The notes: a model not told the origin generated them from the letters alone. 64,000 bases of DNA from Macrostomum lignano (GCA_002269645.1 NIVC01000273.1:225165-289164); one strand, 5' to 3'; shown: positions 11,898 to 34,904, counted from the stretch's first letter. Translations and numbers: made by a program.

Positions 11898-11977
11898 TTC
11901 TAGAATTCGAATTCTAGAATATTCTAGAATAAAAAGAGAATCCATGGATTCCCGAGCCCACACCAATGGTATATAAA
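11898..11977 (+). promoter_or_regulatory. Heat-shock element array plus CCAAT and TATA box
   Basis: Perfect four-unit HSE TTCtaGAAtaTTCtaGAA at 11912-11929, an extra TTCtaGAA at 11898, CCAAT at 11963, TATATAAA at 11970, ATG at 12091. Confidence 0.7.
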
Positions 11978-12090
11978 CAGCCGATTCACACCGCCCCTCG
12001 CCTCACCCTACCTGCTCCGCCTCGCCCCGCCTCACCTCGCCGCGCCAGCAACTTCTTATTTTTTGACTTGCTTAATCTCCGGATCTTGCC

Positions 12091-12691
12091 ATGGATGTTG
12101 AAATGCGAGCAGGCGACAACGTTTACATCGAAAATCTGGAGAACTTCATCAAGGCAGTTTTTTCTAGTAAAGATCTTGACAATTGGAATGTTTGGTTCGA
12201 TAAATATAATGCAATTGCTCGGACACCCATCGCGAAGCAGACTATCATCGGTCGACTAGCAAAAAACTGCCGGCAAGCAATCACAAATCAGCAAGGCTCT
12301 GGACGAGTTGCGCATGGCCTACAAGGCCAACGGTGAGCCTGCGCCAGGGCATTCTCTAGAAGAATTTAAGCAGGGAGCATTCACGATCGACGCGGTGCTT
12401 ATACAGATTGCTAACCTCAATAAACTAGTTGAACGGCATGGTAAGCATGGCTTTGCAAACGGCCTACAGCTCGGCAGGATCTTTCTGAGAATGGAGCGGG
12501 TTCTCAGTAAGGAACAGTTCAACGAGCTGAAAAGACGTGCACCGTTCACCAGCCAGTGGACCTACTTTCTGATGAAATTGGCTGACCAGGCTGGGAAATA
12601 CCCGGTGCTACGAAGATCTGCAATGTTACTGCACAAGCTGAAGTCGATGATGGCATACTTGCCAGAGGCCCTGGCGAAGCTGCAACAGTAA
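12091..12691 (+). CDS. About 200-aa helical 'YP-L' family protein (one frameshift in an A-run near 12285)
   Basis: Two overlapping ORFs join through a 1-nt indel; motif GxQxGRIFL...FLMKL...KYPxL...SxxLxxL...M is shared with 32632-33024. Confidence 0.6.
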
Positions 12692-13190
12692 GTGGACTTT
12701 GGAGAGATAGATTAATATTAGGGACATTGATATCAACGTCGGGCCAATATTTTCTCATGTACTCACTGCATTCAAGTTTGCAATGGTACTTACTCTTGTA
12801 ATTAGGCTCGTGCGCTATGTAATAAGAACCTGGAGAGACGATTGGAAACATTTTTAGAGAAAATTTATATTTTTTTCGGAGCGCCCTGCGCTGAGGATTT
12901 AAAGTATTAGAAAATCTGGTTTCGCGAATTGAATGTGGGGAGAAGAATGCAGATTATTTCTGATTGTTTCAAAGATGCTATGAGTGGATGTCAGTGGATT
13001 ATTTAGGACACTGTTATGCTAATATGAATAGATTTAGGAGGATTTTGTGCGAAGCTTTCGGAGCAAGTGTGACCCCCTTTTTTCTGATTCTGTCGGGGAT
13101 AATATGGATGGATTTAATGGAACTATGTTCGAAGTTTTCGGAGCAAGTGTGACCCCCTTTTTCTGATTCTGTCGGGGATAATATGGATGG
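12690..13190 (-). pseudogene. 'KYWPD' family, copy 3, with ~76-bp repeats
   Basis: ORF-track 12546..12851 and 13034..13279; homology to copies 1, 2 and 4. Confidence 0.6.
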
Positions 13191-13193
13191 ATT

Positions 13194-13488
13194 GTAGTTT
13201 GTAAAATTACCGGACTATATCTGAGAGCCCTTTTTAAATCGACATTTAGACGTCTATTGGGGGAGTCTGGAGGGGGCACTAAAAAACACTAAAAAAACAC
13301 CATTTAACCAATTTAATCAACCCAAAATCAGCAAAATTACCACAATACACAAATCACCAAAACCAACTTTTAAAAAACACAAGACAATCAGATTCTTACC
13401 AACTAAACCCCCAGACTTCCCCACTAGACGTCTAAATGTCGATATTAACCACAACTCCAACTCTAGTCCGGTAATTTTACATACTACT
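13194..13488. mobile_element. About 300-bp inverted-repeat remnant with a Polinton-type terminus (second TIR family)
   Basis: Left GTAGTTTGTAAAATTACCGGACTA...TCGACATTTAGACGTCTA is inverted against the right end, whose reverse complement starts AGTAGTATGTAAAATTACCGGACTAG; no TSD found. Confidence 0.55.
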
Positions 13489-14067
13489 ACCTAACCAACA
13501 CATCTAACAACTACAGCACATCTAACATTCCAACACATCTAACACTTCCAACACAACCAACAGATAGAAAAACTTACTTACCCCCGCCCGTGCCGCAGGC
13601 ACGCGGACGAAGTCCGACCGCCCCGAAGGGGCTTGGGGTAGACAAGAGCTTTTTTTAAACTGATTCATAGGAAAGTAACGCTTAACAAAAAGTTACTCTC
13701 ATAGTCACTATTGTTCATTTTTTCACAGAGAAAGGAAGCAACACAACTAGCTCAAACTGACTCACGCGCAGGGGGTGCAGAAAAAAGCTACCCGCGTGAT
13801 TCAGAACTATAGTTAGTTGAGAAGCTGAGCACCACACACTACACACTTGTTGAGACGTGTTTTTTCAATAAAAGCAGACTGTCTCAGTGTAGTCTGTAGT
13901 TCAAGAAGTACGAGTAATTTGTAGTTTCCGCTAGCTTGCAAAATCTTGCTGCAGCAGGAATTGAACGCCCACTCTGTCCCCAACTCTATAAAAACCACAG
14001 TAATCAACCCCGTTCTAGCTTATCTCTTAGAAAAAACGATTGAGCTTTTATTAAACATTATCTAAAA

Positions 14068-14908
14068 ATGGCTTTTTCTATGGATAAAAAGCGTCCTAGT
14101 AGGATTGTCGCCTCAATTAAAAGCATTAGCTCTAAAGACCAAGCCAGCTCTGCAGTTGTAGTTAGCCGCATGTCTGAAGAGGAGCAGGACTTGCTCTTAA
14201 AGCAGCTGGTGAAAATTGAAGCCGAGTCCGAAGACCGGGAGAAGAAAGAGAAGAAAAAAGAGGCCGATGCTAAAAGCATTAGAGAAAGTCGATTCATTGG
14301 TCGTCTTATTGAAAAAATGAGACAAGTGCAAAACGAAAGCTTTACCATCAAAACTCGGTAAGTTAAATTTTTTCGAATATTTTCCCTCAATGAAAAACAA
14401 TTTCCACTACTTAGTTCGTTTCATTTTAGGTTCAACAACGCTAAGGAACTGTGCACCGCTCCAGTTGGCACCGATGAAGCTCAAATGATTGAACAATTCA
14501 ATCACCTGGAAATGTATCGCGAACATGGAAGTATTAGGATGTTTTGCCCGAAAGAAACAAGCGGAATTTGTTGTCGCAATGCGCGAAAAACTCGTCCTGA
14601 GCATCGAAGGCGTTTCGAAAAAACTGGCGATTGACGTAAAGTTCACCCAGCGCCTATTTACTTTTTTGGCGCTAATAACAGCGTACCCACTGCTGGTAAT
14701 TTCTGGGTATTCTTTTGAAACCCTGCTGACTTTCAAAAAGGCAATTGAGAACCGAGCATCAGAAGACGAGAATTTCCGATGCAGCCTTGAACGCAACATC
14801 AACTATCACTTCGAAGGAGAGGACGATGATTTAATGCTTGATGACGCGGAAGAAGACACAATTTCCGCCATCTTAAGTGAAATGGAGGCGTCCACCATCC
14901 ATGAATAA
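14068..14908 (+). CDS. Two-exon 'SSAVVVS/HTH-like' accessory gene, copy 1 (intron 14358-14429; one frameshift near 14515)
   Basis: TATA near 13987; donor CG|GTAAGT and acceptor TTTTAG|G; exon 2 contains LSIEGVSKKLAIDVKFTQRL (helix-turn-helix-like spacing) and YP..SGYSFETLLTFKK. Confidence 0.65.
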
Positions 14909-15349
14909 AATTTTGACAAATATCCAGAAAAAATTCTGGATTTCCAAAAACACATTGAGTGTATATGACTACTATCATTGAATAAAAAGCTTCTATTGTG
15001 CTTCAGCGGGGCAGGTCATTGTGCCATCGGGCGCAGCCCGCGAACCATAGGTTCATTTTTGGATAGGGAATCTTTTGTATTTGCGTCTTCTTTATTCTCT
15101 ATACAAAAAGAGTAAGAAAAAGAGCTATAAAATAAAATCACTCGAGATGCATTTATACTCGCCTTTTTAGTGTCTGCAGCTTCATTTTTCTGTTACTAAA
15201 AATAGACAAAAATGACACACATAACACAAGCACGTTATACGTTCGTTCTATGGCCTCATAACCAAATACCCAGCTCTGCAGGCAACTGGCTACGCTTTTG
15301 AAACGCTGCTCTTTGAAAGGTGGCCATTGAAAAGTTTGCGTCCGAAGAT

Positions 15350-15472
15350 CCAAACTATGACTGCAGGATAACGGCGCCTATTACCATTCGATTCGAAGGA
15401 GAAGACGATGACGAAGACACCCTACTTGCTGAAAGCATGTCGGGCATTTCTACGAATACTATGAGGGAGTAG
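15350..15472 (+). pseudogene. C-terminal fragment of the same family (…IRFEGEDDDEDTLL…)
   Basis: Similar to …YHFEGEDDDLMLDD… of 14489-14908. Confidence 0.4.
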
Positions 15473-15744
15473 TTTTTAATAGCTAACTTAAAAACATTGA
15501 ATGGACAATAAGCACTAGCCACTTTTTATAGTTTGTAATTTTTTAATGTTCAGAATAATGATATAAAATACACAATCTTTATGTCTACCCTATTCTTTTG
15601 TGCCTCCAGTCGTCTCTTTTTCTATTCAATATTACTAAAAATAGACAAAAATGGCACACTATACACAATAATACAATTTGAATGAATTGCAAGTAGGAGA
15701 CCCAGTAGAGTATCGTGGAGAAAATGGGTGGTAGTTTTGTTATA

Positions 15745-16015
15745 GCTGACTGAATATCTAAAGCGTTTCCTAGAAATAATGGTTTACTGAAGACCACTTT
15801 ATATATAAAAAATTACTATTGTAAAATTGGATGACACTTTCAAATTTTATATACCTGAAATTGCATTGAATTGACCCGTGAATCCAATTTTTCTCATGGT
15901 TTTACTCACGAAATCGTGAAAATTGCATTTTTCAAAATTTTTGAAAATCACAAAAAATCGCTGTTTTCAGACCATTTTCACCTGTCATTTTTACTTATTT
16001 TTAGGGATTTTCAAA
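15745..16015 (+). repeat. About 270-bp AT-rich non-coding repeat; other copies at 32350-32625 (+) and 37330-37560 (-)
   Basis: Shared blocks TTTCAAATT...CCTGAAAT.GCATTGA and TTTTCAGACCATTTTCACCT. Confidence 0.7.
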
Positions 16016-16286
16016 ATGAGTGAGGGCATGAGGGCGAGGGCATCCCAGTAGGGCACTCCAGTACCCCAGTGGTTTTTACCGACTTTATTTAATCCTACAA
16101 CTGCAAAACACGCCATTATTCCTTATATTATTCATTTTTAAGAGTCTTACAGCATTATGGGATTTGCAGAGCGTTTTTTCATAAAAAAATAAATATTTTG
16201 CCGCCAGGGAAGAAATCCACCATTGCCCAATATATCGACAGGACAGGGTATGGTGCATCCTGTGCGGCCAACTACCGCTCGTAAAA

Positions 16287-16712
16287 TTGTGCCCGGACGG
16301 TCATTGGACGTGCAATGACTGCCTGCGACTTCTCGCTTGTCGCGCTATCGGCCACTGTAGCCAATGTGGTTGGAATCTCCTACCGACCACCCTTGCCATC
16401 ACATCTACAATACATTACGAGCCTACTCTATGGATATCCGCCGGCTGTATTCCGAGGCTGACTACGATGCAATTGACGCGGGCTATAAAAACATCGCCCG
16501 CCACAATGGCCCACGCAAAGGCCCGGGAGAATCTGCTGCGGATCAGCCGGGAGATAACGCTGGATGCGACAATTACTAGCGAGACGGATGCCTACCTCGC
16601 CATCCTCAATCGCACAGAGGAACCCAGCTATACCCAATTGCAAATCCTGTTTGGACCTCTGGCGGCGCTCATAATTCGGCTGAAATCCGCCATCAACGAC
16701 ATCTTCGCCTAA
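16287..16712 (+). pseudogene. Double-RING family member, N-terminally truncated
   Basis: CPDGHWTCNDCLRLL...CSQC and C-terminal YLAIL..TEEPSYTQLQILFGPLAAL match the 33307 and 44857 proteins. Confidence 0.65.
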
Positions 16713-16964
16713 CTGACAAACTAGTTACACACCAACATTATGAATTACCTCTATTATAGGCAGTACTTAATTCACTAATTACTATGCCCGTATGGCTTAT
16801 TGCTTCTTGCTCGTTACGTAAACTACAATAATCAGCCTCCACTATATGTTCCGGTCAACACTACTCATTGTTCTATACCTAAAATACAAGCCTGTACGCT
16901 TCACTTGAATTAAATTGAATTTAGGTAAAGTTACTTTACGTGAATTTCACTTCAATTAAAATTC

Positions 16965-16995
16965 GAGACGAATTTTTCGTAAAAAGGGGAGATAT
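16965..16995 (+). other. Gypsy-type integrase-tail remnant and polypurine tract
   Basis: ATTCGAGACGAATTTTTCGTAAAAAGGGGAGATAT directly before TG; reads IRDEFFVKRGDIV, resembling the (F/R)xDE..xGG C-terminus that overlaps the PPT in Ty3/Gypsy elements. Confidence 0.65.
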
Positions 16996-17440
16996 TGTAG
17001 AGATCTTCAAACACAGTAGCCTACTAAAAGTAGTAACATAAAGTTATGAATACAAATTTAAAAATAGCTATGTGTCATACTCTATTTTTAGTAATACCAG
17101 TCATATCACGCAAACAGCGAGTGGCTATGCTATTGTTCGAAAAAACCGGTTCTCGACATATATTTTTAGAACTTCCAAATATGGTAAATTTTAACCTGAA
17201 TGTGACCCAAGTCTCACCACTTTCTATTCAAAAACCCCACCTGTCAAATAATAAAATTCCTTTCGTGAACTCATCAAAAAACCGGTTTTGAGCTCAAGGT
17301 CGACTCAAGGCCGAAAAATTGTGTATAAATACAAACGCAAAATCCGAGCTGAAATCTCAGACTCGGAGCAGCCTCCAAAGATCTTGGGCTTTGCAAGAGC
17401 AGCCAACGAGGCTATATCTCTGAGGAAGAGATAAACACCA
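16996..17440 (+). mobile_element. LTR L1 (TG...CA, 445 bp), with PPT upstream and PBS-like site downstream
   Basis: TGTAGAGATC start; TATAAATA near 17324; TCAGAC initiator-like site about 30 nt later; CA followed by ATTGGTAAGC; homologous to L2, L3 and L4. Confidence 0.75.
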
Positions 17441-17442
17441 AT

Positions 17443-18017
17443 TGGTAAGCTTTGTTCAAGTCTTCGTTATTTTGATTATTGAGAGCGATTGTTATTGCCG
17501 GCCGATACTGTTCAGTTGATTTTATTGAGTCTATTGAGTTTGAGGCCTCCCTTTTCCTAAGGGACTGGATAGGATCTGCGGACCGATTCCGATACCCTTA
17601 GAGGGTTATCGATTGATTGATTTTGGTTATCATAGATTAACCGATAGGAGCACACGACTCCGATTCCGTTAGTTCTAGAAGAAGACGCCCTTTCTGGAAA
17701 ACCTCGTATAGAAGTTGATTTTGTTAGTAGGGCGCATCGTTGATATTGATTTCTGCACTCGAGGAATACATTGAATTCTGCACCCGAAGAAATACTGCGA
17801 CGTCGATTTAATTGTTACGCTCTCACTTTCGGCCGATTCTAGACTTCAAGAAGACTACCCAGGGAGGAACAGCTCTAAGGAGACGAGCTCTACAGACACG
17901 CGCGACAAAGAAGAGGAGCCCGCAACAGTAAGTGATCACTGATTTTGTTCCCAGGCTTAAGTGTCTGGAAGTGGGAGTTTTCGGGAGACTGATCACCTCC
18001 CGAATCAACTCTTCACT
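17443..18017 (+). other. Conserved non-coding leader after L1, ending in a hairpin with loop ACTGATCAC (17988-17996)
   Basis: Aligns with 18703-19283, 34613-37165 (split) and 39363-39896. Confidence 0.7.
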
Positions 18018-18054
18018 GTATTCCACCGAAGCCGCTAACCGTTTTGGAACGGTT

Positions 18055-18288
18055 ATGTACACCGGTGAGGAGTCTGTCGGGGTCTATACCTGGCAGAAAT
18101 ATCTAGGAGAGAGTATAGAAGAAGCAAGAAACGCCGATAGTAATGTGAACTATTTCCAAGTAGTATGTGCGCTAGCGAACATGTTACAGACGCAGCTATT
18201 AATTATGAAGGCGTCAACGGAGGACATTAGGCACAACCAGATGATGTACCTGGCGATTATCGAAGGAAAGCTGGGTTATCTGTGCCGG
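18055..18288 (+). pseudogene. First ORF after the L1 leader, cut off by the LTR L2 insertion
   Basis: ATG at 18055; the reading frame runs into the TG start of L2 at 18289. Confidence 0.4.
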
Positions 18289-18700
18289 TGTAGAGATTTC
18301 CAAATAAGATACAAAGTAGACTACTATAAGTAGCAACATGAAGATGCGAAAAACTCGAATGTTACAAAAACTGCAAATTGTCATACTCTATTTTTAAAGA
18401 CCACGAAAACAACAAGTGACCATCTTTTGCAACATTTAAATTTAGAACTCCGAATATGGTATCGGCGCTCAAAGCTAATGTATTCCATAGGGGTCAAATT
18501 TCCAAAGCGCGAAACTGTCACCTACTAAAAATAAGCTGTTTCTCAACAATTTTTCCTATAAATACAAGCCAAAATCCGAGCTAAAAATCTCAGACTCGGA
18601 GCAGCCTCAAAAGATCTTGGGACTCGGAGCAGCCTCTAAAGATCTTGGAGCTTGCTGGAACAGCTAAGCGAGGCTACATCTCTGAGAGAGAAGTAAACCA
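18289..18700 (+). mobile_element. LTR L2 (412 bp), 5'-type with no PPT upstream
   Basis: TGTAGAGATT start; CTACTATAAGTAG block; TATAAATA; TCAGAC; CA followed by ATTGGTGAGC. Confidence 0.75.
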
Positions 18701-18702
18701 AT

Positions 18703-19283
18703 TGGTGAGCCGTTGCTCGAGCTTTTGTTATTGATTTTGAGAGCGATTTATTGCCGGACGCTAATGTCCAGTCGATTTGACTGAGTTCATTGAATTTGAG
18801 GCCTCCCATTTTCCTAAGGGATTGGATAGGATCTGCGGACCGATTCCGATACCCTTAGAGGATTATCGATTGATTGATTTTGGTTATCCTAGATTAACCG
18901 ATAGGAGCACACGACTCCGATTCCATTATTTCTAGAAGAAGACGCCCTTCTTGGAGGACCTCGTTGTTGTTACAGAAAGTAGATTTTATTACAAGGGCGC
19001 ATCGTTGATATTGATTACTGAGCTCAAGGCCTATATTGATTTGCATTCGAGAAATACTGCGACGTCGCCTGATTTGATCGTCACGCTCTCATTCGGCCGA
19101 TTTAAGACTTCAAGAAGATTCCTCCGGAGAAGAAGAAGATTTGAAGAAACGAGCTCGGAGAACCTGCACTACACAGAAGAGGAGCCCGCAACAGTAAATG
19201 ATCACTTTATTTTGTTCCCAGGCTTAAGTGTCTGGAAGTGGGAGTTTTCGGGAGACTGATCACCTCCCGAATCAACTCTTCAC
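18703..19283 (+). other. Conserved leader after L2, hairpin loop at 19255-19263
   Basis: Near-identical to the L1 leader over most of its length. Confidence 0.7.
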
Positions 19284-19331
19284 CGGGTCCTACTTAGAAT
19301 TGATATACCAGAGGAATTTAAGGACCCAACA

Positions 19332-19871
19332 ATGTCTACATCTAGTGCTAATGATTATTCGTACGTAGAGGGTAAGGTTAGGTGGTCGATAACAATCGGC
19401 CAACTATCTTCGCAGAGCCGCATTCATCTGCAGACGGAGTTATTGGGATACGCCTCTACCATCATGACGCCGCTAAATATGGCCATACTATACGATTTTA
19501 TTGGTAACCTGCAGGCTCAAATGAAGTCAAAAGACCAGAAATCGGTAGAGTTAGATGTTAACACTCTACTAGCCATTAATGCCTCAGCGTTTAGTTATGT
19601 ATCACCAGCTGTAACACTACCGAAGCCAGACTATAATAAGCCGGCAGAACTCATCTTTTCGAAGAATGTCGATAGATCGAGTCTTTCTTATCAACTGGCC
19701 AAGACAATGATAGAATGTAATCAAGTAATAGCAAAAGCTATTACAAAGGCCAACGCGAATTTTACAAAATTACAGATGCAGCTTTCGCAGCCAGGAGTGT
19801 CCGAAACAGGATTAAGCGCCCACGCTCTAAACAATGAAAGAAGAGCTGTATTCCAAAACAGGGCCGACTAG
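19332..19871 (+). CDS. Hypothetical 179-aa protein in the gag position
   Basis: Intact ATG ORF (CAACAATG context) about 50 nt after the leader hairpin; no recognisable Gag motif. Confidence 0.55.
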   Translation: MSTSSANDYSYVEGKVRWSITIGQLSSQSRIHLQTELLGYASTIMTPLNMAILYDFIGNLQAQMKSKDQKSVELDVNTLLAINASAFSYVSPAVTLPKPDYNKPAELIFSKNVDRSSLSYQLAKTMIECNQVIAKAITKANANFTKLQMQLSQPGVSETGLSAHALNNERRAVFQNRAD

Positions 19872-19888
19872 ATTCATCGACAAAGAAT

Positions 19889-20911
19889 ATGACAGAATAC
19901 ATCCCCATAGACGGATTTACACGCAATCAGGCTATAATAATATTTGCCGTTGCTAAGTGTCGATTATGCAAAGACATTAGGTACCTGCCGAAAGAAGTGT
20001 ACGAAAAAATTTCTCGCAAATACAACGACAGCTACTGGATAGGTAACGGTGAGTTTGGGACATTTAAACTGTCACCGGAGCAATCGCAGTTGATTGATCC
20101 AGTCAAAAATCCAGATCTGCTGGAATATAGTTCAGATAGTCCTGTAGGTGGATACTCGGTCAACTTAAAGAAGTTGACGGCAACTGCTCTTTCCATTAAG
20201 CCATTGCCAAACAACACAACCGTGCCTGTAGTGACAGGTGAGGCAAGAAACGAGCTTTATAAATTGTATTTTCCATTTGAGAGACAGCCAAGAACCACTC
20301 GCCGCCGTGAGAGGTCGCTCAGTGCCAGACGGCTAGAGTATGACGATGGCACCTCTATGAGGTCAGAGTCGCCATTTCCACGTCCTCTATCACGAGGACA
20401 GTCTCCGTATCGCAGGCCTCAATCGCCGTTTCGGCCACATCAGATGCCGCATCAGATGCCGCATCAGATGCCACAGCCGCCGCCGTACCAACAGCATTCA
20501 CAGCCGACGCCGCCGCCACTGTTGCAGATGCCGCGACCACAGCCGGTATCGCAAATGCCACGACCACAGCCACCTCAGCTGCCGCCACCTCAACTGCCGC
20601 CGCCTCAACTGCCGCCGCCACAAGTAACTCAGCCGTCTCAGCCGCCACAAGTAACTCAGCCGTCTCAGCCGCCTCAGCCGCCACAAATAACTCAGCCGTC
20701 TCAGCCGTCTCAGCCGGCTCAGCCATCTCAGCCGCAAGTGCCGCCGCTCATGATGCCGCCGTTTAATAGGCCGCCGCCGCCACCGCCGCGACCACCTCAG
20801 ACAATGTCGCTGCCTACAACTACCCCATCTCAAGCAATGCCGTCGCTGGCTGCTTCAGAGTCAGAGCAACAATCAAACCCTCGACGGAGTCGAAGCAGGT
20901 CAAGGACGTGA
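19889..20911 (+). CDS. Hypothetical 340-aa protein with a globular N-terminus, Arg/Ser-Pro segment and Pro/Gln repeat tail
   Basis: Intact ORF; RSESPF, QSPYRRPQSPF, PHQM and SQPPQ repeats, terminal RRSRSRSRT. Confidence 0.55.
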   Translation: MTEYIPIDGFTRNQAIIIFAVAKCRLCKDIRYLPKEVYEKISRKYNDSYWIGNGEFGTFKLSPEQSQLIDPVKNPDLLEYSSDSPVGGYSVNLKKLTATALSIKPLPNNTTVPVVTGEARNELYKLYFPFERQPRTTRRRERSLSARRLEYDDGTSMRSESPFPRPLSRGQSPYRRPQSPFRPHQMPHQMPHQMPQPPPYQQHSQPTPPPLLQMPRPQPVSQMPRPQPPQLPPPQLPPPQLPPPQVTQPSQPPQVTQPSQPPQPPQITQPSQPSQPAQPSQPQVPPLMMPPFNRPPPPPPRPPQTMSLPTTTPSQAMPSLAASESEQQSNPRRSRSRSRT

Positions 20912-21331
20912 CTGCCACCTCCGCAAGCAACTCAGCCACCGCCGCCGCTCATGATGCCGCCGCCAATGTTGCAGCTGCCGTCTTCAAATGGTCGAGGACG
21001 AGGAAGAGGAAGTGGGGGGAATACTAACCCCCCAAATCTGCAACCATTCCCGCCGAAGTAATTAGGAATAGTCAGGAATAGTTAGGAATGGTAAAGACTG
21101 CAGTCTTCCTTCCATAATTTTAAATTGCTTTAAAATGTGTTTAAATATGCCAAAATTTTCTCTTTTCGGTTTAGGGTTCCTCTTTTTGGTTTAGGGTTCC
21201 TCTTTTTGCTTTAGGGTTCCTCTTTTTGGTTTAATAATATGCTTATTTTTCGCATATTTTCGGCATTTATTAAATAAAAAATATATTTTTTTAAGATAAG
21301 GTTCTCTTATACTAAATCTTCTATCGCCACA

Positions 21332-23734: not shown

Positions 23735-25119
23735 GGTGCAGAAGAAGCTCAAAATCTATGAACTTCTGACGTCGCTGCCTCGGTTGCAACACTGTTAAGT
23801 CCGAGTTTCCTTCTTGTTGGATAACGCTACTCTCATTTTAAGTGAGTACCGCTACCAACGCGACGCAAATATTTGGACTGACCCAGCAGTTCCGCAAGCC
23901 AATCAAATGCCAGAAGGTGCTCATGGTAACGTTGTTATCCCTGGGGCAGCAAATGTGGCAGCAGCTGGTGGAACCGAGGATGTGCAGGAGGGTTAAAGAC
24001 ACAATACGCGCTCGTATACCCAGTAAGTATAAATCTATATCAACCCTGGAAGAACTCTGCCCTATACAATTCGCTGTACACGAAATGAGCGGGAGGAAAA
24101 TCAATATTATTCTGGATCTGAATAATATCGATTTTGGATTGTGCGAGGATCTACAATATCTTGTTCTTTTTCTACCTTCATTCATTTCCAGCCTTACAAC
24201 TAGCTCGCACGTCGCGGAGGAAATTCTCAGCCGGATAGCCCTGCGCACTCAGTGTCTGCTCTTTCCTCCTTTGCATCTGTTTTATGTAAATATAATTGTG
24301 AATAAATGAACTCAGTATGTTTTTTAGTAAGCTTTTGAGTGTGCTTTTCGATTTCTTCTGTTGCCGGAGGACAGATGTTGGTAGAGAAACCGAAAACTAA
24401 AAGAGGCCATTTTGAGTCACCTGATCTGATTAAGGCAGAATTGTTCCCTGTCAAACTAGCCTATGATCTCACTGTAATGAGAGTGGTCATGCAAGTTCAC
24501 AAAGATGCGGAGGTTGAGTTTAAAGATGACACTTGGTATAGGGAATTGGGATTCGAGAAAAAAGTTTATAAGGCAGAACCCGGTGTAAAAATCGACGTCG
24601 AATCGACTTCGAAAATTTTAGGCCGAATCGACGTCGAATGATGTCCCGGTGATTCGACGTCGATTCGAAGTCGAGTTTTTCGGCCTAAATTTCGCGATAC
24701 TTCCTTGATTTTCGCCTCTGAATGTGCCTCAAAACAAACAAAATTCTTTAAAGAAATAACTTAATTTAAATATTCAATACGAGGGTGACTTCATGTAGTA
24801 TATCTTTTGAATGCGCGGCATTAAATCAGAACAAAATAACCGCATAAAATGGAACACAAAAGCTGAAATATGGTTTATTTTTAAAGAAACTACGAGCGCA
24901 GTAAAGAGAAGCTTTGGTATATAAATTAACAAAACAATTACAACGATTAGAAAAGACAACGCAAAAAGTCGGAAAAACTAAAAACTAAGAAATTTATGAT
25001 GAATGGACTTTGATATCCAGCGTCTTTGAGAAGCATATATGAGTATTAGTTCGTATTTAAAAACGTATCATGATGCAGACATCTAAGCACTCCCTTAAAT
25101 TCACTCCTCATGTCGCTTT

Positions 25120-26611
25120 GACGTGGCCCTCACTTTTGAATCTTTCAGCATTCGCTTAATCTTTTGAGTGATTCGCTCCTCAGAAGCTTGCGGAAACGCC
25201 TTGGTTACGGCCACTGAAAGCAAATAAATTCACTGCATTTTACACGTAGGCACGCGAGTACTTTTTGTGACATCGTTTTAACTGCATGGAAATACAATTA
25301 CAGGTAAATAGACAGAGGCGTCGCCATGGATTTTATGGTGGGGGGGACAAAGCCAAGAATTCTATATGCACATGTACACGACGAAATGCCTACATGTACA
25401 TTATTTTCAGAATCGGTGTTGTCAGCACTAATTTTAGCACTGCAGGCACTCATTTTAGCTCCGCAGGCACTCATTTTAGCGCCGCAGACACTTATTTTAG
25501 CGCCACAGGCACTCATTTTAGCACTGCAGACACTCATTTTAGCACTGCAGGCACTCATTTTAGCTCCGCAGGCACTCATTTTAGCGCCTTAGGCACTTAT
25601 TTTAGCGCCACAGGCACTCATTTTAGCACTGCAGACACTCATTTTAGCACTGCAGGCACTTATTTTAGCGCCACAGGCACTCATTTTAGCGCCTTAGGCA
25701 CTTATTTTAGCGCCACAGGCACTCATTTTAGCACTGCAAGCACTCATTTTAGCACTGCAGGCACTCATTTTAGCTCCGCAGGCACTCATTTTAGCGCCTT
25801 AGGCACTTATTTTAGCGCCACAGGCACTCATTTTAGCGCTGCAGGCACTCATTTTAGCACTGCAGGCACTCATTTTAGCTCCGCAGGCACTCATTTTAGC
25901 GCCTTAGGCACTTATTTTAGCGCCACAGGCACTCATTTTAGCACTGCAGACACTCATTTTAGCACTGCAGGCACTCATTTTAGCTCCGCAGGTACTCATT
26001 TTAGCGCCTTAGGCACTCATTTTAGCGCCTTAGGCACTTATTTTAGCGCCACAGGCACTCATTTTAGCACTGCAGACACTCATTTTAGCACTGCAGGCAC
26101 TCATTTTAGCTCCGCAGGTGCTATTTTGTCACCATGCAGCAAAAATTAATAACGGGCCACAAGGTGGGGGTGGGGGGACAAAGCATTGGCATGCCCCCCC
26201 CAGATATTTTACTGGAGGGGACACGTCCCCCCTGTCCCCCCCGTTGGTGACGCCCCTGTAAATATATTAGTAGTGCACATTAGTGGTACATTAAAGGGTA
26301 AATATAAATATACGAAGTACATTTGGAAATGATACGTATAAATTCCTAAGCAAAGGTTTGGCAGGAGCATTAGTTCATAACATTAACTTACAAATGACGA
26401 TCGGTTCCAAGGTTTTGGCAAATGATAGCTTATTGCCACTTGTTTTTCGTGCTTGCGAATAATCCCTACCAGACCGATTGAAAGCCTGTTGAAACTTTCT
26501 TGACAGCAGAAAGTCCATTATTCTTGCTGTGTGGGCTTCAGCATTGTTGCCACCAAGGCGTCGTAGCTTCGAAATCTGTAAAAGGACGCGCGTTTGAGTC
26601 ACCTGCAACAT
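25120..26611 (-). CDS. DUF4806/BEN-like accessory gene of the transposon, spliced, partial
   Basis: LRRLGGNN...RIMDFLL...AFNRSGR...KLSFAKT, with a downstream exon AFPQASEERITQKIKRMLKDSK. Confidence 0.5.
25313..26258. mobile_element. hAT-type MITE carrying a 21-bp tandem array (about 25430-26120)
   Basis: TIR CAG(A/G)GGCGTC(G/A)CCA; 8-bp TSD TAAATAGA/TAAATATA (7 of 8 match). Confidence 0.75.
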
Positions 26612-28799
26612 CAGTCATTTTTATATTTACCGTACCAAAGAACTTTTTCATGCATGCAGCATAATATTTCGTGATATTTATTTAAAATGATGTTAAACTG
26701 AAACAGTAAATTGAATCAGTGAATTAAAACAGTGAACAGTAAATTATTTTGTATAAATAAAAAATTTGGCAATATTGCACAAGAAATTAAAAAGGACTAG
26801 TCTGTCATTGATAATGCTTGGTTATTATTTGGCTGTCAATGTGGATGTTTTTTTGTACTAAATTTTAAGTGAAAGATTTCGATGTAAATGTACACAGTTG
26901 TATAAATGATATTATGTCTACTCAAAAATAGTATTTGGCCTTTCTCCCAACTGTTTGAAATTCCCTCTATATTTAAAAAAGATGAACTTGACCCTAGCTA
27001 ATTCAAACATTATGCAGTCTGTACTGCTCAGTAAGAATAATTCAGCAATAGTTTAGAAATGATAATACAGTGTTTGCTTTAGATGGAACATATTACTATA
27101 AGTAAAACATTGTCTATATCTACAAAAGCCATTTAAAGTGCAATAAAGTATCAAAGGCACTAAAGTTTATAAAGGATCTATAATAACAAATAGTTAAAGC
27201 TTTAATTTTATAGGCCTAGGATCTCATGAATAATCCTAAACTAAAGCCCAAAAATAAAAGATTGGAACTTTACAACTGTAAAGTAAGTAAAATTTTATGT
27301 TCTACATCATTAGAATTCCATTATATAAGTTGATAGAGTGCTTCTTGATTGGAAACAAATAAACCAAAAACTTCTTTAGCACCACCATGAGCAATTTGGA
27401 TTAGAAGCCTAAATCACTTATTATCATTTCATTAAAGCTTAATAAAATATCTAAAAAGTTAAGCAAAGTATTAACTGAAAAGTTGACATCAATCTAGTTT
27501 GGACCCCATAGAAATTGTCATAAAATAATAATGATTTCATAATAAAATCAACAAAAAACAAACAATAAAAATTGTAGCAATTTATCTTATAAATAGCTGA
27601 AACAAGAATGCTCACTATATTTAGCACATGCCTATTGGCTCTGTGCTTCAAACAACATGTTAAAAGTGTCTTTTTAAAGTAAGGTTGCTAATATGACTAC
27701 AGCTAGTTAATTATAAAGTTGCAAAAATTATAGTGAGAGAAGTTTTTTTACTTTTTTTTACAAAAATGAATGTTGAATAATATGGCTGTTGATTAGAACA
27801 CCCCATGCATAGATGCTATGACTATAGCGACCAAATGCAATATGACTAAAATTTTAGAAAAAGTCAGGAGAGAGCATATCCCAAATGACAAGTTAACACA
27901 TAAATAACTTTGTGAAAAAAATCAGTCGAAAGAACTAAATTAATTTGCTGCTGCATACTGCGAATGCTATTTTAAATTGATTACTTATTAAGAACTGCAT
28001 ATTTACTTGGAAATTGCAAACCTTTAAGTAAACTTCTAACTACGAGCGTTTTTTTGCCCAGGCGATCTAGTAATTCTGCAAATTTAACGTCATTAATTTA
28101 AACTCACACCATTTAGTATCGTGTGCTGCAAAATAGCTCGAGTAAACACAATTCTAAACTAAAAATTTAAATTATTCTGTTACTAAAAGTACTGCCGTTA
28201 CGGTCAAGTTAATATTTATAAGAGTAAATTTAATTTGTTAAAACTGTTGATGCAACTCAAATCGAAGTCGAATTTTCGACTTCTATTCGGCATCTCCGTC
28301 AATTCGACTTTAGAAGAAAAATCGACTTCGAATCGACTTCGAATCGACGTCGAATTTTACACCGGGAATCCACGGCGCGGACCGCCACTCAAGCGTCAGG
28401 GGCCGTTAGCATGGCCCGGGAAAATGTAAGCGGTTTGTTCTTAGCACCCAATTTTTGCAGACATTGTAAAGGGTTTGAATATTCTAATAAGAAATAATCT
28501 CAGTCTTGATTGGATATTTAAGGGAAAGGGAACGGATTTTTTGTTACAACATCTCTAACTCTGTTGCTGGAGGACAGATGCTGGTAGAGAAACCAAATCC
28601 AGTGAAAAGAGTTGTATTGAGTAATAAGGAGATTCACAAGATTGTGCTACAGTTTGAGACAGAAGATCCTATTAGTAATTAGATCCTTTGAGACAGAGAG
28701 GGTGGGTGTTGATTTCAACGGTGAAGAGTTTGTATTGACGTTGACCATTGAGAGAATGTGAGAAAAAAAATTACAATTGCAAACTACAAAAACAAAACG

Positions 28800-29930
28800 A
28801 CAAATTGCAACTGCCTTATAACTTCAGCGAAGTTATAGTAGCTGTCGTAATCTTTTACGAGTACATAGTTTACTCCATACTCATGAAACCAGTGTCTTTG
28901 GAGAGCTAGATTAATATTAGGGACATTGATATCAACGTCGGGCCAATATTTTCTCATGTACTCACTGCATTCAAGTTTTTATCGGTATTTACTCTTGTAA
29001 TTAGGCTCGTGCGCTTTGTAATAAGAACCTGGAGAGACGATTGGAAGCATTTTTATTGAGAATTTAATTTTTTTCGTAGGATGAGCACTCTGCGCTGAGG
29101 ATTTAAAGTCTTAGGGATCTGGTTTCGCGAATTGAATGTGGGGAGAAGAATGAAGATTATTTTCTGATTGTTTCGAAGATGCTATGGGTGGATTTCAGTG
29201 GATTATGTAGGACACCTGTTGAAACGAAAAATTATATGAGTTTTTCCCATATTATCGTTTCCTTCTGCCAACAGTTCAGGAAGACAACGAACAATGGACC
29301 TCGATGGTAACTTTCTCTGTGTGATCTCTAGAGTCACATTCTCAAACTTCAGGCGAGGATCTTTCCTCTTCAATCAGTATATTTTATAAGCTAGCACACT
29401 GTACGCGAGCAACGAGGAATAGGAGCAGTAGGGAGAGAGAGTGGGATTTCGAGGCCCAATAGGCAGTGTCGGTCAGAGGTTGTGCATGCATCACGCGAGG
29501 GTCGCATGGCTGGGCTTCTTGCTCGCCGATCATCAGGACTATTTTTAGGCATGCAGATCTTGTGCATCTGGGGAGTTGCTGCCAAGGCTGGATGCTTGTT
29601 CACGCATCACGCGCGTGTCGGCTGATTTCTCCCATCCTCTTGCTAACGGCGCCTTCGTTTCACTTCACTGTTATGCTCTGATTTTGTCGTGGAGGAAGGA
29701 GGATAGGTTAGGAGGATTATGTTCGAAGTTTTCGGAGCAAGTAGGACACCTGTTATGCTCTGATTCTGTCGGGGATAATATGGATGGATTTAATGGGATT
29801 ATGGAGGACGTTTTGTGAGCGAGTGCGACCCCCCTTTTTCTGATTTTGTCGGGGATAATATGGATGGATTTAATGGGATTATGGAGGACGTGAAAAATTT
29901 GTCCCAGAAGCCACCTCATGCATTCTACTC
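28800..29930 (-). pseudogene. 'KYWPD' family, copy 4, with ~76-bp repeats at 29700-29900
   Basis: Nucleotide homology to 12690-13190 and 8352-8895. Confidence 0.6.
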
Positions 29931-30401
29931 AGAGTTGTTCTTTGGCAGAGTAGGCAAACTTCACTCAATTGCCCCGAAGGGTCGCAGACAGTCTGATGAG
30001 TAAGACAGGAATTCGGGACTCTATTCGCGCCACACGCAAACAATTTTGCATTGCAACAATATGGTCGGCTATAGCAAGGCAAGTAGGCAAACTTCACTTG
30101 ATCGCCCCGAAGTGTCGCAGGCACATTGCGATGACTAACACAGAAATTTGGGGTTCTACTCGCGTCGCAACAATAGGGTCGACTATAGTAAATTCATTTT
30201 ATCGCCTGAAGGCTCACAGAGACATTTTTATGACTAACACAGGAATTCGGGGTTTTCGAGTGCCCATCCACCCACGGCACAGCGAGTCACGCTTTCTATT
30301 CAAACCAAAAAGCGAGGCCAAAATTTTTTCCCACGTGTTGCTCTCGCCATGTGAGTTGAATTGATTGAATGAACTCTTTCTATTGACCTGAAAAAATATA
30401 T

Positions 30402-31270
30402 GTGAGCACCCTGCCGCAACTGAGTAGCTATTTTACCCCCCGCCAAAAAACAGAAATACATGCAATGGCCGCCTCTACTTCTATCCATAGTCAGATAATC
30501 GACACTATTAAGAGTATTAGCACCAAACACTCAAATAGTTCCGCCGTTGTAGTTAGTAAGTTGGGTGTTGATGAACAGTGCCAACTACTAAAAAGTCTAA
30601 AAGTAATAGAAAGCCAGTCCACGAAGAAAAATCGCACCAGAGAGAAAAGCAACAACGAAGAGGCAAAGTATCTAAGAGAACCTCGATTTATTGCTTGCTT
30701 GAAGGAAAAGCTTGACAATGTGAAAAACGAGGCAATTGTCGTCAAAACTCGGTAAGTTTTATTATAGAATCTTATCACTTAGTCAATAGCTTTTCAATGA
30801 GAAAAGAACATATTTTATTTCAGTTTCAATGAAGCGAAGGATTTATGCGCAGAGGAACTTAGTCAGGACGAAGACCAACTAAATCGATCGGTTTACTAAG
30901 CTGGAAAAATCTTCTTTGCCGATCTAGAAATTTTAGCCTGCCTTGCTGGAAGGAGGCAAGCGGAAGTTATTGCTAAGCTACGCGAATCCCTTGACTTGAG
31001 CATCAAAGGCGATGCTGCTAAACTGCAAATCGATGAAAAGTTCGCAGAAAGACTCTTCACAATCTAATTGTCAAATATCCAGTCCTGGTGGTTTCAGGCT
31101 ACAACTTTGAAACACTGCTAACCTACAAGGCTCTTATTCAGAAAACGGCGACAGAAGACGAGAATTTTGCTTGTCGCCTTAAAGTTTCACTAACATACGA
31201 TTCGAGGGAGAAAACGAGAACGACGACGAGATCGACGGCGAGAAGATGCTGCTTGACGAAACAACGGAAG
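30402..31270 (+). pseudogene. Two-exon 'SSAVVVS/HTH-like' gene, copy 2 (intron 30752-30823)
   Basis: Same KTR|GTAAG donor and the same 72-nt intron length as copy 1; exon 2 has several indels. Confidence 0.6.
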
Positions 31271-32631
31271 ACATGGCCAAGTCATCAATTTCTGGATAAA
31301 AAATGTCCAGAAAAATTTTTGGAGATCCACAAAAATGACTCAACATTAAAAAATGTTTTACTGCTTTTGTTACTACTCAAAGTAGTATACAAAACATCTT
31401 TTTGAAAAAATACACATTTACCTACACATTTACATACACATTTACACATTACCTACACATTCACATACACATTTACACTTTGGATTAAAAAATATTCTTT
31501 TGTAAATTCACGCATTCTTTTTCTCCTTTTTGATCTCTTGGCACAATAATTTTACCAAAAATCATAGTGAGTTTCAGGCCGTTTAGTTTCAATAGATGCA
31601 ATGGCAGCGAAGATGTTGCACTGCATTGCGCGTATATTTATACAAGTGAATACAGCGCGAGATTATTAAGGGGCCGAGGGAGGTGCGCACATGTGGCGTG
31701 GCTAAAGGATTTATGTAGCATTATTTCATCACCAACCTGCGGAGCTGCCACTTCATCATCTGTGGACTCCGCTATAGGCCCATTATCTGTGGGCTTTTGC
31801 TGCTGACGCCGAAGCCGCTCAGCTTGAACGTATTGTTCAAATTCTTCATCACTAATCTCTCTGAGTTGTTCCATTTTTTATAAAATAAATACAGCAATAA
31901 AATCTTCTTGCTTAATTTCTGTTTTGCATTGTGTCCGACCGAATTCGACATGAGGGGGGGGGCTATTATTCGTATGTAAATCTTTACCTAGTTTCTCATG
32001 TTCCAGTGCTATAAAATCTCTCCATGTATTCACCTATCGCCCCTAGGGTCGCGAGCATTGTTCAATTGTATCTTACCTGGCCCACTTCATATCTTTTTAC
32101 AACTAGAAAGAGGGTAAACACAAAAGACTTGCATGAGCCACTCCTATTGAATGCCAAAACCAAACACTTTTTGGCAGAAATTTTGGTTTTGGCAAAAATT
32201 TTGGCAGCCAATAGGAATGTTGAGTGCTGTGTTTATGTATAATTAGTTTTGTGAGTTCCTGCGAGAGCTTTTTTGACCATACGCTTCACTCAGTGTGGGT
32301 TCCACACGGCGTTAAAGCTAAGTCACAATATACAAATTAGTTTCAGGAGAAGTTCTCGTACTGAATGTCTAAAGCAGTTCCTAGAAATTGTGGTTTATTA
32401 ATGGCCATTTTATGACGAAAAATTAAGCAATATCAAATTTGATGACAGTTTCAAATTGTTTACACCTGAAATGGCATTGAGATGAACCAACGATTCCAAA
32501 ATAACTATTGATTTTAGAGCTAGAATTGTGCAAATGACACTTTTTCAAAATTATTGAAAAAACAAATCCCTAAAATCACTGTTTTAAGACCATTTTCACC
32601 TTTTTAAGTCATTTTTAGTGAATTTCAAGGT

Positions 32632-33024
32632 ATGCTTTGCGCTCAAACCTACCCATCCGATACCACTCCTGCCGATGATGAAGGCGGTGATGTGGTAGAG
32701 CGTCTGCAGTGCGCTCTGCTTCGTCTGAGAATGTCGCAGAAGAGTAGTCTGCTTCATGCGACCCAATGTGGAAAAATCTTGTTGACATTTAAAGCCAGTA
32801 ACCACAACTACGGTAGGAAGGCACGAAAACAGCATTTTGACTGTCTTTTTGATCGAGTAAACCTCAATGTTTCGTCAGCAAATTTTTATATGAAGTTATT
32901 CATGCTGGAAAGTGAATACCCTGGTCTTAAGCAAGTCTCCTTGCCGCTTCGTGATTTGAACACTAATATGTTAATATTAGTTGAAATCCTTGAGGATGAT
33001 CAGTCATGGAAGCAACTTGTCTGA
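32632..33024 (+). CDS. 'YP-L' family protein (130 aa)
   Basis: ATQCGKILLTFK...SSANFYMKLFMLESEYPGLKQVSLPLRDLNTNM aligns by eye with the 12308-12691 protein. Confidence 0.6.
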   Translation: MLCAQTYPSDTTPADDEGGDVVERLQCALLRLRMSQKSSLLHATQCGKILLTFKASNHNYGRKARKQHFDCLFDRVNLNVSSANFYMKLFMLESEYPGLKQVSLPLRDLNTNMLILVEILEDDQSWKQLV

Positions 33025-33306
33025 AAATAGACACTCTAGCCTGCTTTGGATTGGTCAGAAAAGGTTAACGCGTTGGCTTTTTCCCTATTGCAGAACACAC
33101 GAGAGAAATAGTTGTATATGGTATCGTAATAATTTTTGTAAAATAGTATACGGACGCTCTAGCTTGCTTTCGATTGGCCAGGGGACAAAGAAATGCCAGG
33201 GGACCATGCAAGATCTGACAGGTTTTATCGATTCTATCGATCAATTTATTGTTGAGGAGCATAAGGATGACGGGTAAAGAAGACATGGTTCGAGAACTCC
33301 CCGAAA

Positions 33307-33885
33307 ATGGAGGAGGTCTCCCAACAAAGACCCTCCTGCCAGTACGGCCACGGCATATGTTTTACGTGTTTTGACACGGGCCTAATACACCGGTGCCCCT
33401 TGTATCGAGATCCTCTTATCTATTGCATTTTCTGCGGCACGGACCCGCAAATCCGACTATGCAGCTCCAAACAATGGAGCTGCTTTACGTGTCTCCAACG
33501 GCTGGCCGGAAGGAAAATTACATACTGCCCAATGTGTATGGGTCCCTTTGAGGACACGGCAACTGACATCAGCCGCTTCACGCCTGAGCGATCCGGCTTG
33601 TGCTTCACAAACATTAACGAAATGACGGCGCAGGAGATCGCTGCCAACATTCACGATTGGCCGGTGCCCGCTAGTTACCAAGACACCCGGCGACGTCTAC
33701 TAAGCATGGGACGCTACCATGCTCAAAGTAACAGCCAAGTGACGACGGAAGCGATTTACCAACACCTTCTGGAGGCCACCGAACACACGGAATACACGGC
33801 CCTCCAGCCGCTCATCTGGCCAGTGGCGGTATTGGCATTTCGTGCCCGGCGCCTGATACACGGATTCCTAAGGGAACTTTTTTGA
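33307..33885 (+). CDS. Tandem double-RING-like protein (putative E3 ubiquitin ligase), first RING partial or degenerate
   Basis: CQYGHGICFTC...CPLY; CIFC...CSSKQWSCFTC...CPMC; conserved C-terminal IY..LL...LQ.L.WP.A.L domain. Confidence 0.7.
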   Translation: MEEVSQQRPSCQYGHGICFTCFDTGLIHRCPLYRDPLIYCIFCGTDPQIRLCSSKQWSCFTCLQRLAGRKITYCPMCMGPFEDTATDISRFTPERSGLCFTNINEMTAQEIAANIHDWPVPASYQDTRRRLLSMGRYHAQSNSQVTTEAIYQHLLEATEHTEYTALQPLIWPVAVLAFRARRLIHGFLRELF

Positions 33886-34134
33886 AACATAAAACAACCA
33901 AACACCACTCACTATAAGGCCTATTCTCCTAGCTAACTTCATTAATGTTACAAACGCATGTAAAGCCATTACTTGATTCGTTTATCTCATTACTTGCTGA
34001 TATTACTGTCAAATCATTCATTTATCTCATTACTTGCTTATATTACTGTAAAAGCATTCGTTTATAAATAAAATTACGCCTGCAACATTTTAAACAAAAT
34101 ACCACTCTTCTTTAATAATGTATTAAAAATTCGG

Positions 34135-34610
34135 GACGAAATTCTTGTAAAAAAGGGAGATATTGTAAAGATCTAAAAACTTAGTTGCCTACTAAAAGTA
34201 GTAAGATAAAACTATGAATAAAAATTTAAGAATAGCTATGCGTCATACTCTTTTTTTCTAATACCAGTAATATCGCGAAAATAGCGAGTGACTATGCTAT
34301 TGTCCGAAAAACCGGTTCTCGACATCTATTTTCAGAACTTCAAAATATGGTAAATGTTAACCTGAATGTAACATAATTCTCACTCTTTTCTATTCAAAAA
34401 ACCCCACCTATCAAATAATAAAAAAATTTTCGTGAACTCATCAAATAAACCGGTTTTGAGCTCAAGGTCAACTCAAGGCCGACAAATTGTGCATAAATAT
34501 AAACGCAAAATCCGAGCTGAAATCTCAGACTCGGAGCAGCCTCCAAAAAGCTTTGGCTCTGCAAGAGCAGCCAAACGAGGCTACATCTCTGAGGAAGAGA
34601 TTAAATATCA
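34135..34610 (+). mobile_element. Integrase-tail/PPT motif (34135-34163) plus LTR L3 (34164-34610)
   Basis: ATTCGGGACGAAATTCTTGTAAAAAAGGGAGATAT|TGTAAAG; roughly 85% identical to L1 by eye; CA followed by ATTGGTAAGC. Confidence 0.78.
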
Positions 34611-34904
34611 ATTGGTAAGCTTTGTTCGAGTCTTCGTTAGTAGTAATAGAAAATTACGTCCATACCCCATCTTTCAATTGCAAAACACGTAATAAGGTAC
34701 CCGTCAGAAATTTTATTACGCACATACCCTATTTTTCGATTAAAAATCAAGTAGTAAGGTACCGAACCAAACGGTAGGGTATTCTACAGGAATTGTAACT
34801 ACACTGCACCGCACCCACAAAGAATCCAAAAGAAGAAAAGATCTCAATTTCGATCAACCAACCAACCAACTTGTCCAAAAACGCACTTTCGGTATATTTC
34901 TGCA

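Follow-up and report, generated by a model that had tools for sequence, protein, structure and literature searches.

Does a set of genes that occurs twice in the same order within a nest of mobile elements mark a duplicated segment or the conserved part of a mobile element? The question is raised by a 64,000-nucleotide stretch of the Macrostomum lignano genome (GCA_002269645.1 NIVC01000273.1:225165-289164), here called the window, with positions counted from its first base. Bases 1 to ~47000 of the window form a mobile-element nest, and the rest holds host-like genes amid minisatellites. A previous inspection of the DNA alone (the sequence-only reading) had noticed a ~5-kb gene-order module at 12690-17450 and again at 28800-34620 and took it for the 3′ half of an element, kept by descent rather than by recent duplication. 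We found that the recurrence of the module is real, that the anatomy proposed for it was largely right, and that the idea of descent was partly right.

Self-comparison of the window in the manner of a dot plot, at both the DNA and the protein level, recovered six homologous blocks in the same order and orientation in 12697-18015 (module 1) and 28787-37164 (module 2), bearing out what had been noticed. The blocks are an antisense KYWPD open reading frame (ORF) with its flank, tandem repeats, a spliced helix-turn-helix (HTH)-like gene, a 270-bp spacer, a RING-like gene, and a polypurine tract (PPT) with a long terminal repeat (LTR). We made 13 comparisons between the modules, each scored as Z against shuffles. 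Seven gave Z values of 13 to 52 (KYWPD, 52; repeats, 22; HTH exon 1, 13; HTH exon 2, 23; spacer, 28; PPT and LTR, 41 and 50), and two were marginal at the DNA level (RING, 4.7; HTH intron, 2.5). The four inter-block gaps all lay at shuffle background (Z of −0.3 to 0.6), agreeing with the earlier remark that the sequences between the genes mostly do not align, and sensitive blastn aligned 2,262 of the 4,761 bases of 12690-17450. Judged by order alone, the chance of six blocks sharing order and strand is ~1/720. The module limits first given (17450 and 34620) were too short, as the shared unit reaches the LTR ends at 18015 and 37164; in the second copy, a 1.9-kb insert interrupts it.

That each module closes with a PPT and a genuine LTR supports the view of them as the 3′ half of an element. 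All four full LTR copies in the window (A to D) begin with TGTA, finish with CTCTTCA, and measure 920 to 1,105 bp. The two PPT-bearing copies, A and C, are the two module ends; with a purine tract immediately upstream, they are 3′ LTRs. The PPT is absent before B and D, and both of these are flanked by exact 4-bp target duplications, which identifies them as solo LTRs of a family that integrates. Neither A nor C has a target duplication (the outside 4 bp differ, ATAT versus CATC). As TGG, the start of a primer-binding site, is found within 8 nt downstream of none of the four full LTRs, there is no 5′ LTR in the window. The same 38-bp PPT stub stands 284 and 279 bp after the two RING stop codons, and since it recurs despite RING genes that are only 34% identical, the RING-PPT-LTR junction appears to be a family-level trait. 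Features of Ty3/gypsy elements were found in the TG...CA ends with short terminal inverted repeats, the target duplication, and the PPT. Duplications of 4 bp mark certain Ty3/gypsy clades. TGTNR is given as a Gypsy terminal pattern in PMC2836005.

Each of the four LTRs contains a TATA box, an initiator (Inr)-like TCAGAC ~33 nt further on, and a donor-like ATTG/GTRAG another ~85 nt downstream, and an acceptor-like site lies near the end of three of them. Because these TATA, Inr, and donor signals lie inside the LTR, the "leader" that had been placed after the PPT and LTR is the R/U5 part of the LTR itself. The donor-like and acceptor-like sites (17445-17954 in LTR A and likewise in other LTRs) may delimit an intron in the LTR leader; alternatively, the donor-like sequence could mark a site of polyadenylation followed by a GU-rich element. 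We did not accept a hairpin at the 3′ end of the LTR as a demonstrated structure: despite two double-sided pair changes, it is equaled in 38 of 500 shuffles and has a folding z score of about −1. A fifth LTR (E) is represented by a 3′-end remnant at 46769-46837, 90% like LTR D.

The reading frame is open from the first base after LTR A, and solo LTR B interrupts it without a change of frame from one side to the other. Read most simply, element 1, which ends in LTR A, inserted into element 2, which ends in LTR C, and the 5′ half of each is either located to the left of the window or lost. With the later inserts removed (solo LTR B, 24579-28366, and 29220-29667), the internal sequence amounts to at least 9,215 bp in element 1 and ~10,900 bp in element 2.

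The GT-AG intron of the spliced HTH-like gene occupies the same position in both modules, and intact M. lignano gene models, including the 254-aa P0004, read exactly across the exon junction. Both copies are frameshifted in exon 2 (near 14510 in module 1); the module 1 copy has its own TATA box ~80 bp upstream and an AATAAA signal that overlaps the stop codon. Between the modules, the proteins share 51% identity over 179 codons (dS, 1.82; dN, 0.42; dN/dS, 0.23). The ratio of nonsynonymous to synonymous differences per site (pN/pS) was 0.47 (bootstrap range, 0.37 to 0.60) and fell under all 200 neutral simulations run through the identical pipeline (median, 0.95; minimum, 0.57). The HTH gene is thus under purifying selection. 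Identity to P0004 is 75 to 81% for module 1 and 42 to 63% for module 2, so the two copies belong to different subfamilies. An HTH profile search of 1.84 billion representatives gave nine matches, three of them named M. lignano proteins, and the relatives among M. lignano gene models are intact, multicopy, and near-identical (in clusters of 4). A tree of 14 rows had good support for only 2 of its 11 branches, which is too weak to give a direction of transfer.

The predicted P0004 fold (pLDDT, 84) consists of long helices followed by a helix-turn-helix. Its residues 137-217 match the HTH of KorB/Spo0J/SopB with a weak score (Z, 6.3; root mean square deviation, 2.8; 76 residues), and the top fold matches are HTH proteins, though no Foldseek E value is better than 0.63 and no Z exceeds 6.3. 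The predicted structure aligns with ParB/KorB-type HTH domains, but the gene lacks the ParB NTPase domain, identity is ~10%, and the Z score is typical of common arrangements. An ESM Atlas query with HTH exon 2 gave no usable match. The label "HTH-like" is fair, and the product may bind DNA.

The RING family has an architecture of two Cys-rich units and a helical tail. The module 1 and 2 genes are 34% identical in amino acids over 155 codons with saturated synonymous sites, and their pN/pS of 0.67 (0.57 to 0.80) reaches into the values at the low end of the neutral control, which leaves selection on this pair less than firm; module 2 and the third copy gave 0.50 (0.40 to 0.60). Named viral fold matches of the family are mostly RING proteins (best E, 7.9e-3). 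Across the fold searches for HTH and RING, no match had an E of 0.001 or better or a Z of 8 or more. A homolog search with the module 2 RING protein retained 0 of 61 candidates, and ESM Atlas gave only RING leads below 0.9. The label "RING-like" is fair, and the product is a candidate ubiquitin ligase. Two other ORFs touch on this cargo: a broken, canonical RING-like ORF at 38030-38510, which matches Pfam zf-RING_4 (E, 0.004) and is no relative of the module RING family, and, near the RING genes, a broken ORF at 43581-43830 whose OTU/otubain-like motif matches Pfam Peptidase_C65 (E, 0.0013) and suggests deubiquitinase-like cargo.

The KYWPD ORF behaves differently from these two genes, which are indeed strongly diverged as the sequence-only reading had stated of all the genes: between the modules it is 90.5% identical in nucleotides over 327 columns, with one synonymous and three nonsynonymous changes in 49 codons. 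Purifying selection appeared in just one of four valid comparisons (0.39), which leaves its coding status weakly supported, and the ORF has no match in Pfam or PHROG. The tandem repeats do not have the 76-bp period first given; the three arrays measured have periods of 79, 80, and 81 bp. RNA folding revealed no common structure in the repeats (z of +3.5 and +0.25) or in the spacer (z of −2.4 and −1.6, with differing structures).

The ages of the blocks are far from uniform. Between the modules, the Kimura two-parameter (K2P) distance of the LTR is 0.11 in one half and 0.06 in the other; that of the KYWPD block is 0.07, and the spacer reaches 0.29. The divergence of adjacent blocks differs by more than 15-fold. 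The LTRs are themselves mosaics: A and C are 84 to 96% alike throughout, A and B are 49 to 80% alike over the first 520 nt and 88 to 99% alike in parts of the 3′ half, and C and D are 91% alike at the extreme end and 32 to 63% elsewhere. The modules are therefore mosaics in which a young KYWPD flank and LTR surround an old HTH-RING middle (dS of 1.8 or saturated). Descent rather than recent duplication holds for that middle (HTH dN/dS, 0.23), and the combination of dN/dS near 1 and uniform divergence that would have spoken against it is not seen, but it does not hold for the recent KYWPD flank and LTR (K2P, 0.06 to 0.11). As the flanks are young, plain old descent is insufficient, and recombination between families at conserved flanks would explain the pattern.

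The same cargo is also found with another class of element. AGTAGT...ACTACT inverted ends and a 6-bp duplication are hallmarks of Polintons. The insert at 34639-36528 has a 6-bp duplication (TTCGTT), and its empty site is seen in LTR A. Its protease matches the structure of a viral S273R protease (E, 3.3e-6) and is 56% identical to the protease that ends the 1-7780 core; its HTH exon 2 is 54 to 56% identical to either module and nearer to P0001/P0003. The Polinton-type terminal motif has exactly five hits in 64 kb, every one at a Polinton-type end. Because genes of the HTH and RING families accompany LTRs as well as Polinton-type termini, the cargo is common to LTR and Polinton-type elements. 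Neither module is bounded by Polinton inverted ends, only the insert being so bounded. Apart from that nested insert, the modules contain no protein-primed PolB (pPolB), integrase, ATPase, protease, or capsid gene, and pPolB and protease are located in 1-7780, which stops short of the modules. Within that core, the ORFs at 30-1333 include unusual accessory genes: a TBP-like domain was matched at a Pfam E of 2.8e-5 and a deoxynucleoside kinase at an E of 2.6e-17. A non-LTR retrotransposon piece with an RNase H and a (GTAA)n tail lies inside the protease gene (5760-7225). More Polinton-type right ends and a remnant resembling a terminal inverted repeat occur at 42617-42627, 45795-45856, and 46537-46720, with no matching left ends in the window.

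We favor, with modest confidence, the explanation that the modules are the 3′ internal regions and 3′ LTRs of two related, nested, decaying Ty3/gypsy-type elements with a long accessory block between pol and the PPT. It builds on what is directly observed of LTR identity and integration, PPT placement, nesting, gene order, HTH selection, mosaic ages, and cargo shared with Polinton-ended units. The order KYWPD (antisense)-repeats-HTH-spacer-RING-PPT would be an old, family-level layout, and recombination among coexisting families would have put anciently diverged HTH-RING cassettes between near-identical ends, most likely by template switching in reverse transcription at the KYWPD/repeat block and the PPT-LTR. 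The HTH protein may be a DNA-binding regulator and the RING protein a ubiquitin-ligase-type counter-silencing factor; the two would be expressed from their own promoters or spliced from the LTR-leader donor, as in complex retroviruses. Their cargo pool would be common to the host's Polintons.

Several observations weigh against this explanation. The window holds no gag, reverse transcriptase (RT), RNase H, integrase, 5′ LTR, or primer-binding site belonging to the elements, and a link between cargo and pol is not seen. Pfam found none of these four domains in 167 of 179 stop-to-stop frames of at least 62 aa in 7500-47500, excluding the CCCGG-ended insert (the 12 unscanned frames are alternative frames over low-complexity stretches), and a search for a pol fusion of the ORF at 19284-19868 among longer proteins retained 0 of 651, which is weak evidence. 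The HTH intron, on the sense strand, persists in each copy, and there are separate TATA boxes for cargo genes. Sense AATAAA signals are not depleted, with 10 in element 1 against 8.7 expected. HTH and RING genes also occur with Polinton-type ends, the KYWPD ORF shows little purifying selection, as noted above, and all of the evidence comes from one locus.

The sense intron and the ordinary number of AATAAA signals are awkward for an RNA intermediate and keep alive a reading in which the gene block belongs to Polinton-like DNA elements as their accessory region, and the PPT-LTR pieces are ordinary LTR remnants joined to it by insertion or deletion. Introns, internal promoters, and polyadenylation signals suit DNA replication; there are five termini with one motif and a Polinton core at 1-7780; HTH exon 2 sits beside a protease inside a Polinton-type insert, and 319 bp separate a RING gene from a Polinton-type end; and the RING and OTU-like genes resemble DNA-virus cargo. 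We nevertheless consider this reading unlikely: two independent events would be needed to leave the same 38-bp PPT stub after diverged RING genes, no Polinton terminus follows RING in either module, and the KYWPD ORF and spacer are not seen within a complete Polinton-bounded unit. Were it to hold, what is new at the locus would be a family of Polinton accessory genes, in an otherwise ordinary transposon nest.

LTRs A and C could instead be the 5′ and 3′ ends of a single nonautonomous element of ~12 to 13 kb (large retrotransposon derivative [LARD]-like or tandem) in which cargo replaces gag-pol; module 1 would then be the unit before it in a tandem array. In favor of this, A and C form a direct repeat (88 to 89% alike) with only cargo ORFs between them, and LTR-sharing tandem arrays would also place a PPT before both. 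The missing primer-binding site after A, the differing outside 4 bp, and the frame that is open from the first base after A, as though A's element had hit a gene, make this improbable. Equally little probability attaches to an old local duplication in the transposon nest with later gene conversion of the flanks and no mobile unit of this order. The KYWPD block has been copied locally (inverted at 10995-11480, 91 to 97% identical), and the region is a nest of at least seven insertions, but conversion would have had to spare both genes and all four gaps, and purifying selection on HTH over saturating synonymous divergence, the multicopy relatives, and the independent solo LTRs point to mobile families. 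A recent neutral segmental duplication, suggested by KYWPD and LTR blocks that are 88 to 97% identical, is hardly credible, because the divergence is not uniform (a more than 15-fold contrast between adjacent blocks, with unaligned gaps) and the HTH pN/pS lies below every one of the 200 neutral simulations.

Table 1. Coordinates of the modules and of other features in the window
Feature	Position	Strand	Remarks
Decayed Polinton core	1-7780	+	Terminus at 7780; deoxynucleoside kinase (dNK), protein-primed PolB, ORFs that we take to be capsid-like, protease
Further KYWPD + repeat unit	8349-8905	-	81-83% to modules; HTH/RING do not follow
Inverted KYWPD + repeat unit	10995-11480	+	Internally deleted; 91-97% to modules
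KYWPD ORF, module 1	12697-12851	-	Without 3′ end; family ~80 aa
Tandem repeats, module 1	13017-13193		Period 79 bp; upstream of antisense KYWPD ORF
295-bp element cutting module 1 repeat array	13193-13488		Polinton-like inverted ends, 83% over 81 bp; no target duplication
Spliced HTH gene, module 1	14068-14908	+	Exon 1 to 14357; GT-AG intron 14358-14430; exon 2 from 14431
Second HTH copy, module 1	15215-15450	+	Partial and broken
Spacer repeat, module 1	15749-16014		270 bp, A/T-rich; 73% to 32360-32628; 82% to inverted 37372-37545
RING-like gene, module 1	16185-16712	+	5′ part missing relative to other copies; helical C-terminal domain
PPT stretch before LTR A	16958-16995	+	Conserved 38 bp
LTR A, 3′ LTR of element 1	16996-18015	+	TGTAG...CTTCA; TATA 17324, Inr-like 17357, donor-like GT 17445, acceptor-like AG 17954
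Element 2 cargo, same-strand ORF run	18016-24577	+	No known family; ORFs: interrupted one to 19871; 19888-20911, Pro/Gln/Arg-rich; 21333-23734; 23842-24309; from 24367
Solo LTR B	18289-19282	+	4-bp target duplication CCGG; interrupts ORF
Unrelated DNA transposon inside element 2	24579-28366		CCCGG inverted ends; AA on both sides
KYWPD ORF, module 2	28787-29050	-	One in-frame stop
TG...CA insert, solo LTR of another family	29220-29667		448 bp; 4-bp duplication CTGT; absent from module 1
Tandem repeats, module 2	29668-29929		Period 80 bp
Spliced HTH gene, module 2	30465-31299	+	Intron 30754-30823; several exon 2 frameshifts
Spacer repeat, module 2	32360-32628		270 bp
RING-like gene, module 2	33307-33885	+	Open from ATG to stop; two Cys-rich units; Pfam Sina_RING E 0.015
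PPT region before LTR C	34126-34163	+	
LTR C, 3′ LTR of element 2	34164-37164	+	Split by mini-Polinton
Nonautonomous Polinton-type insert	34639-36528		1,890 bp; splits LTR C; AGTAGT...ACTACT ends, 88% over ~245 bp
Cysteine protease in Polinton-type insert	34905-35330	-	5′ truncated
HTH exon 2 in Polinton-type insert	~35295-35642	+	5′ truncated; third subfamily
Solo LTR D	38976-39895	+	4-bp target duplication CTCG
Third RING-family gene	44857-45537	+	Pfam Sina_RING E 4.9e-4, below curated cut-off; 319 bp from Polinton-type end at 45856

Database searches with the window were otherwise largely empty. Rfam gave no match at gathering thresholds over the whole 64 kb, exact look-up found 0 of 7 window proteins in the protein collection, and PHROGs gave just two marginal matches, of unknown function, for 28 window proteins. 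Named homologs of the module proteins were found only among M. lignano gene models. A Pfam match to Ac110 and one to Ntox11 in an element 2 ORF (23799-23993; E, 0.0012) are weak, lie under the cut-off, and are not relied on. The ORF at 19888-20911 in the same cargo has SP/RRPQSP motifs, a Pro/Gln-rich stretch, an RS-rich tail, and no family match; we take it to recall viral nucleic-acid-packaging proteins. Upstream of the ORF at 12091-12691, an alternating nGAAn array followed by a TATA box (11895-11975) holds two of the four perfect three-unit nGAAn matches in the window and is a putative heat-shock-type internal promoter. M. lignano has LTR families driven by heat-shock elements, and there the elements sit in the LTR (PMC12801592). 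Two further repeat pairs lie in the nest, a 236-bp direct repeat (38628-38862 and 43219-43454; 89% identical) and a less similar pair (41094-41339 and 41407-41647; 65%). In the host-like region (49900-64000), many 17- to 34-bp minisatellites surround ORFs that, from their translations, we take to be small Tim, eIF3j-like, and PEBP/mL38-like.

Beyond the two elements, the locus tentatively suggests something broader, which we regard as possible but doubtful: a very large animal LTR retroelement lineage with a modular block of 8 to 10 DNA-virus-like units after pol (some spliced and with their own promoters), which swaps cassettes at conserved flanks and trades genes with Polintons. If the cargo does travel with an LTR element, it would extend the known capacity of an RNA intermediate (to introns in the sense orientation and to internal promoters and polyadenylation signals over 10 kb). 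It would also represent concrete sharing of accessory genes between LTR retroelements and Polintons and a gene-exchange route linking RNA-replicating and DNA-replicating endogenous virus-like elements. In the literature outside subscription journals, covered mostly at listing level, we found no description of this element or of cargo sharing between LTR elements and Polintons. A published M. lignano screen demanded target duplications of at least 5 bp and LTRs less than 20 kb apart (PMC5730564), and because of these thresholds such elements would have escaped it.

Among known M. lignano elements, the Mag, CsRN1, Gmr1/Osvaldo, and Mdg3 families share the host and the Ty3/gypsy-type ends (PMC12801592). 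That study, however, classifies by RT, which is absent from the window, and three LTR motifs looked for in its five supplements were not found, so we make no family assignment; separately deposited family sequences may include the element. The accessible text of that source contains neither "ORF" nor "Polinton." Polintons/Mavericks (adintoviruses; PMC8502044 and PMC6431247) share pPolB, the protease, inverted ends, and the 6-bp duplication with the neighboring and nested elements, whereas no Polinton core gene lies in the modules, whose terminus is a PPT and LTR rather than an inverted repeat; RING and flatworms are not mentioned in the accessible part of PMC8502044.

Closer parallels to the modules come from large retroelements. 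Plant Ty3/gypsy elements of the Retand/Tat group carry an antisense ORF and tandem repeats between pol and the 3′ LTR (2.9 to 6.6 kb), and their accessory proteins are proposed to bind DNA (PMC11963269). The likeness is analogous only: Retand elements have mainly antisense TRP28 ORFs, whereas the region here spans at least 9 to 11 kb in an animal host and its ORFs, one of which has an intron, are mostly in the sense orientation, and the frames scanned in the window gave no TRP28/PF04195 match. A virus origin of the Retand cargo has been raised as an idea but not shown (PMC11963269). Planarian Burro shares with our elements the flatworm host group, a very large internal region, and RING and ubiquitin-related accessory domains (PMC6431247). 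Its extra domains, however, lie mostly in one polyprotein upstream of pol, and its LTRs are several times longer, whereas the cargo here consists of separate small 3′ ORFs beside LTRs of 0.9 to 1.1 kb. In the bdelloid elements Juno, Vesta, and TelKA, extra ORFs are likewise common to unrelated classes of mobile elements, and template switching has been proposed (PMC5408684). Their ORF3 is shared with Terminons; both partners are retroelements and one extra ORF is involved, whereas here the partner is a Polinton and the genes are many.

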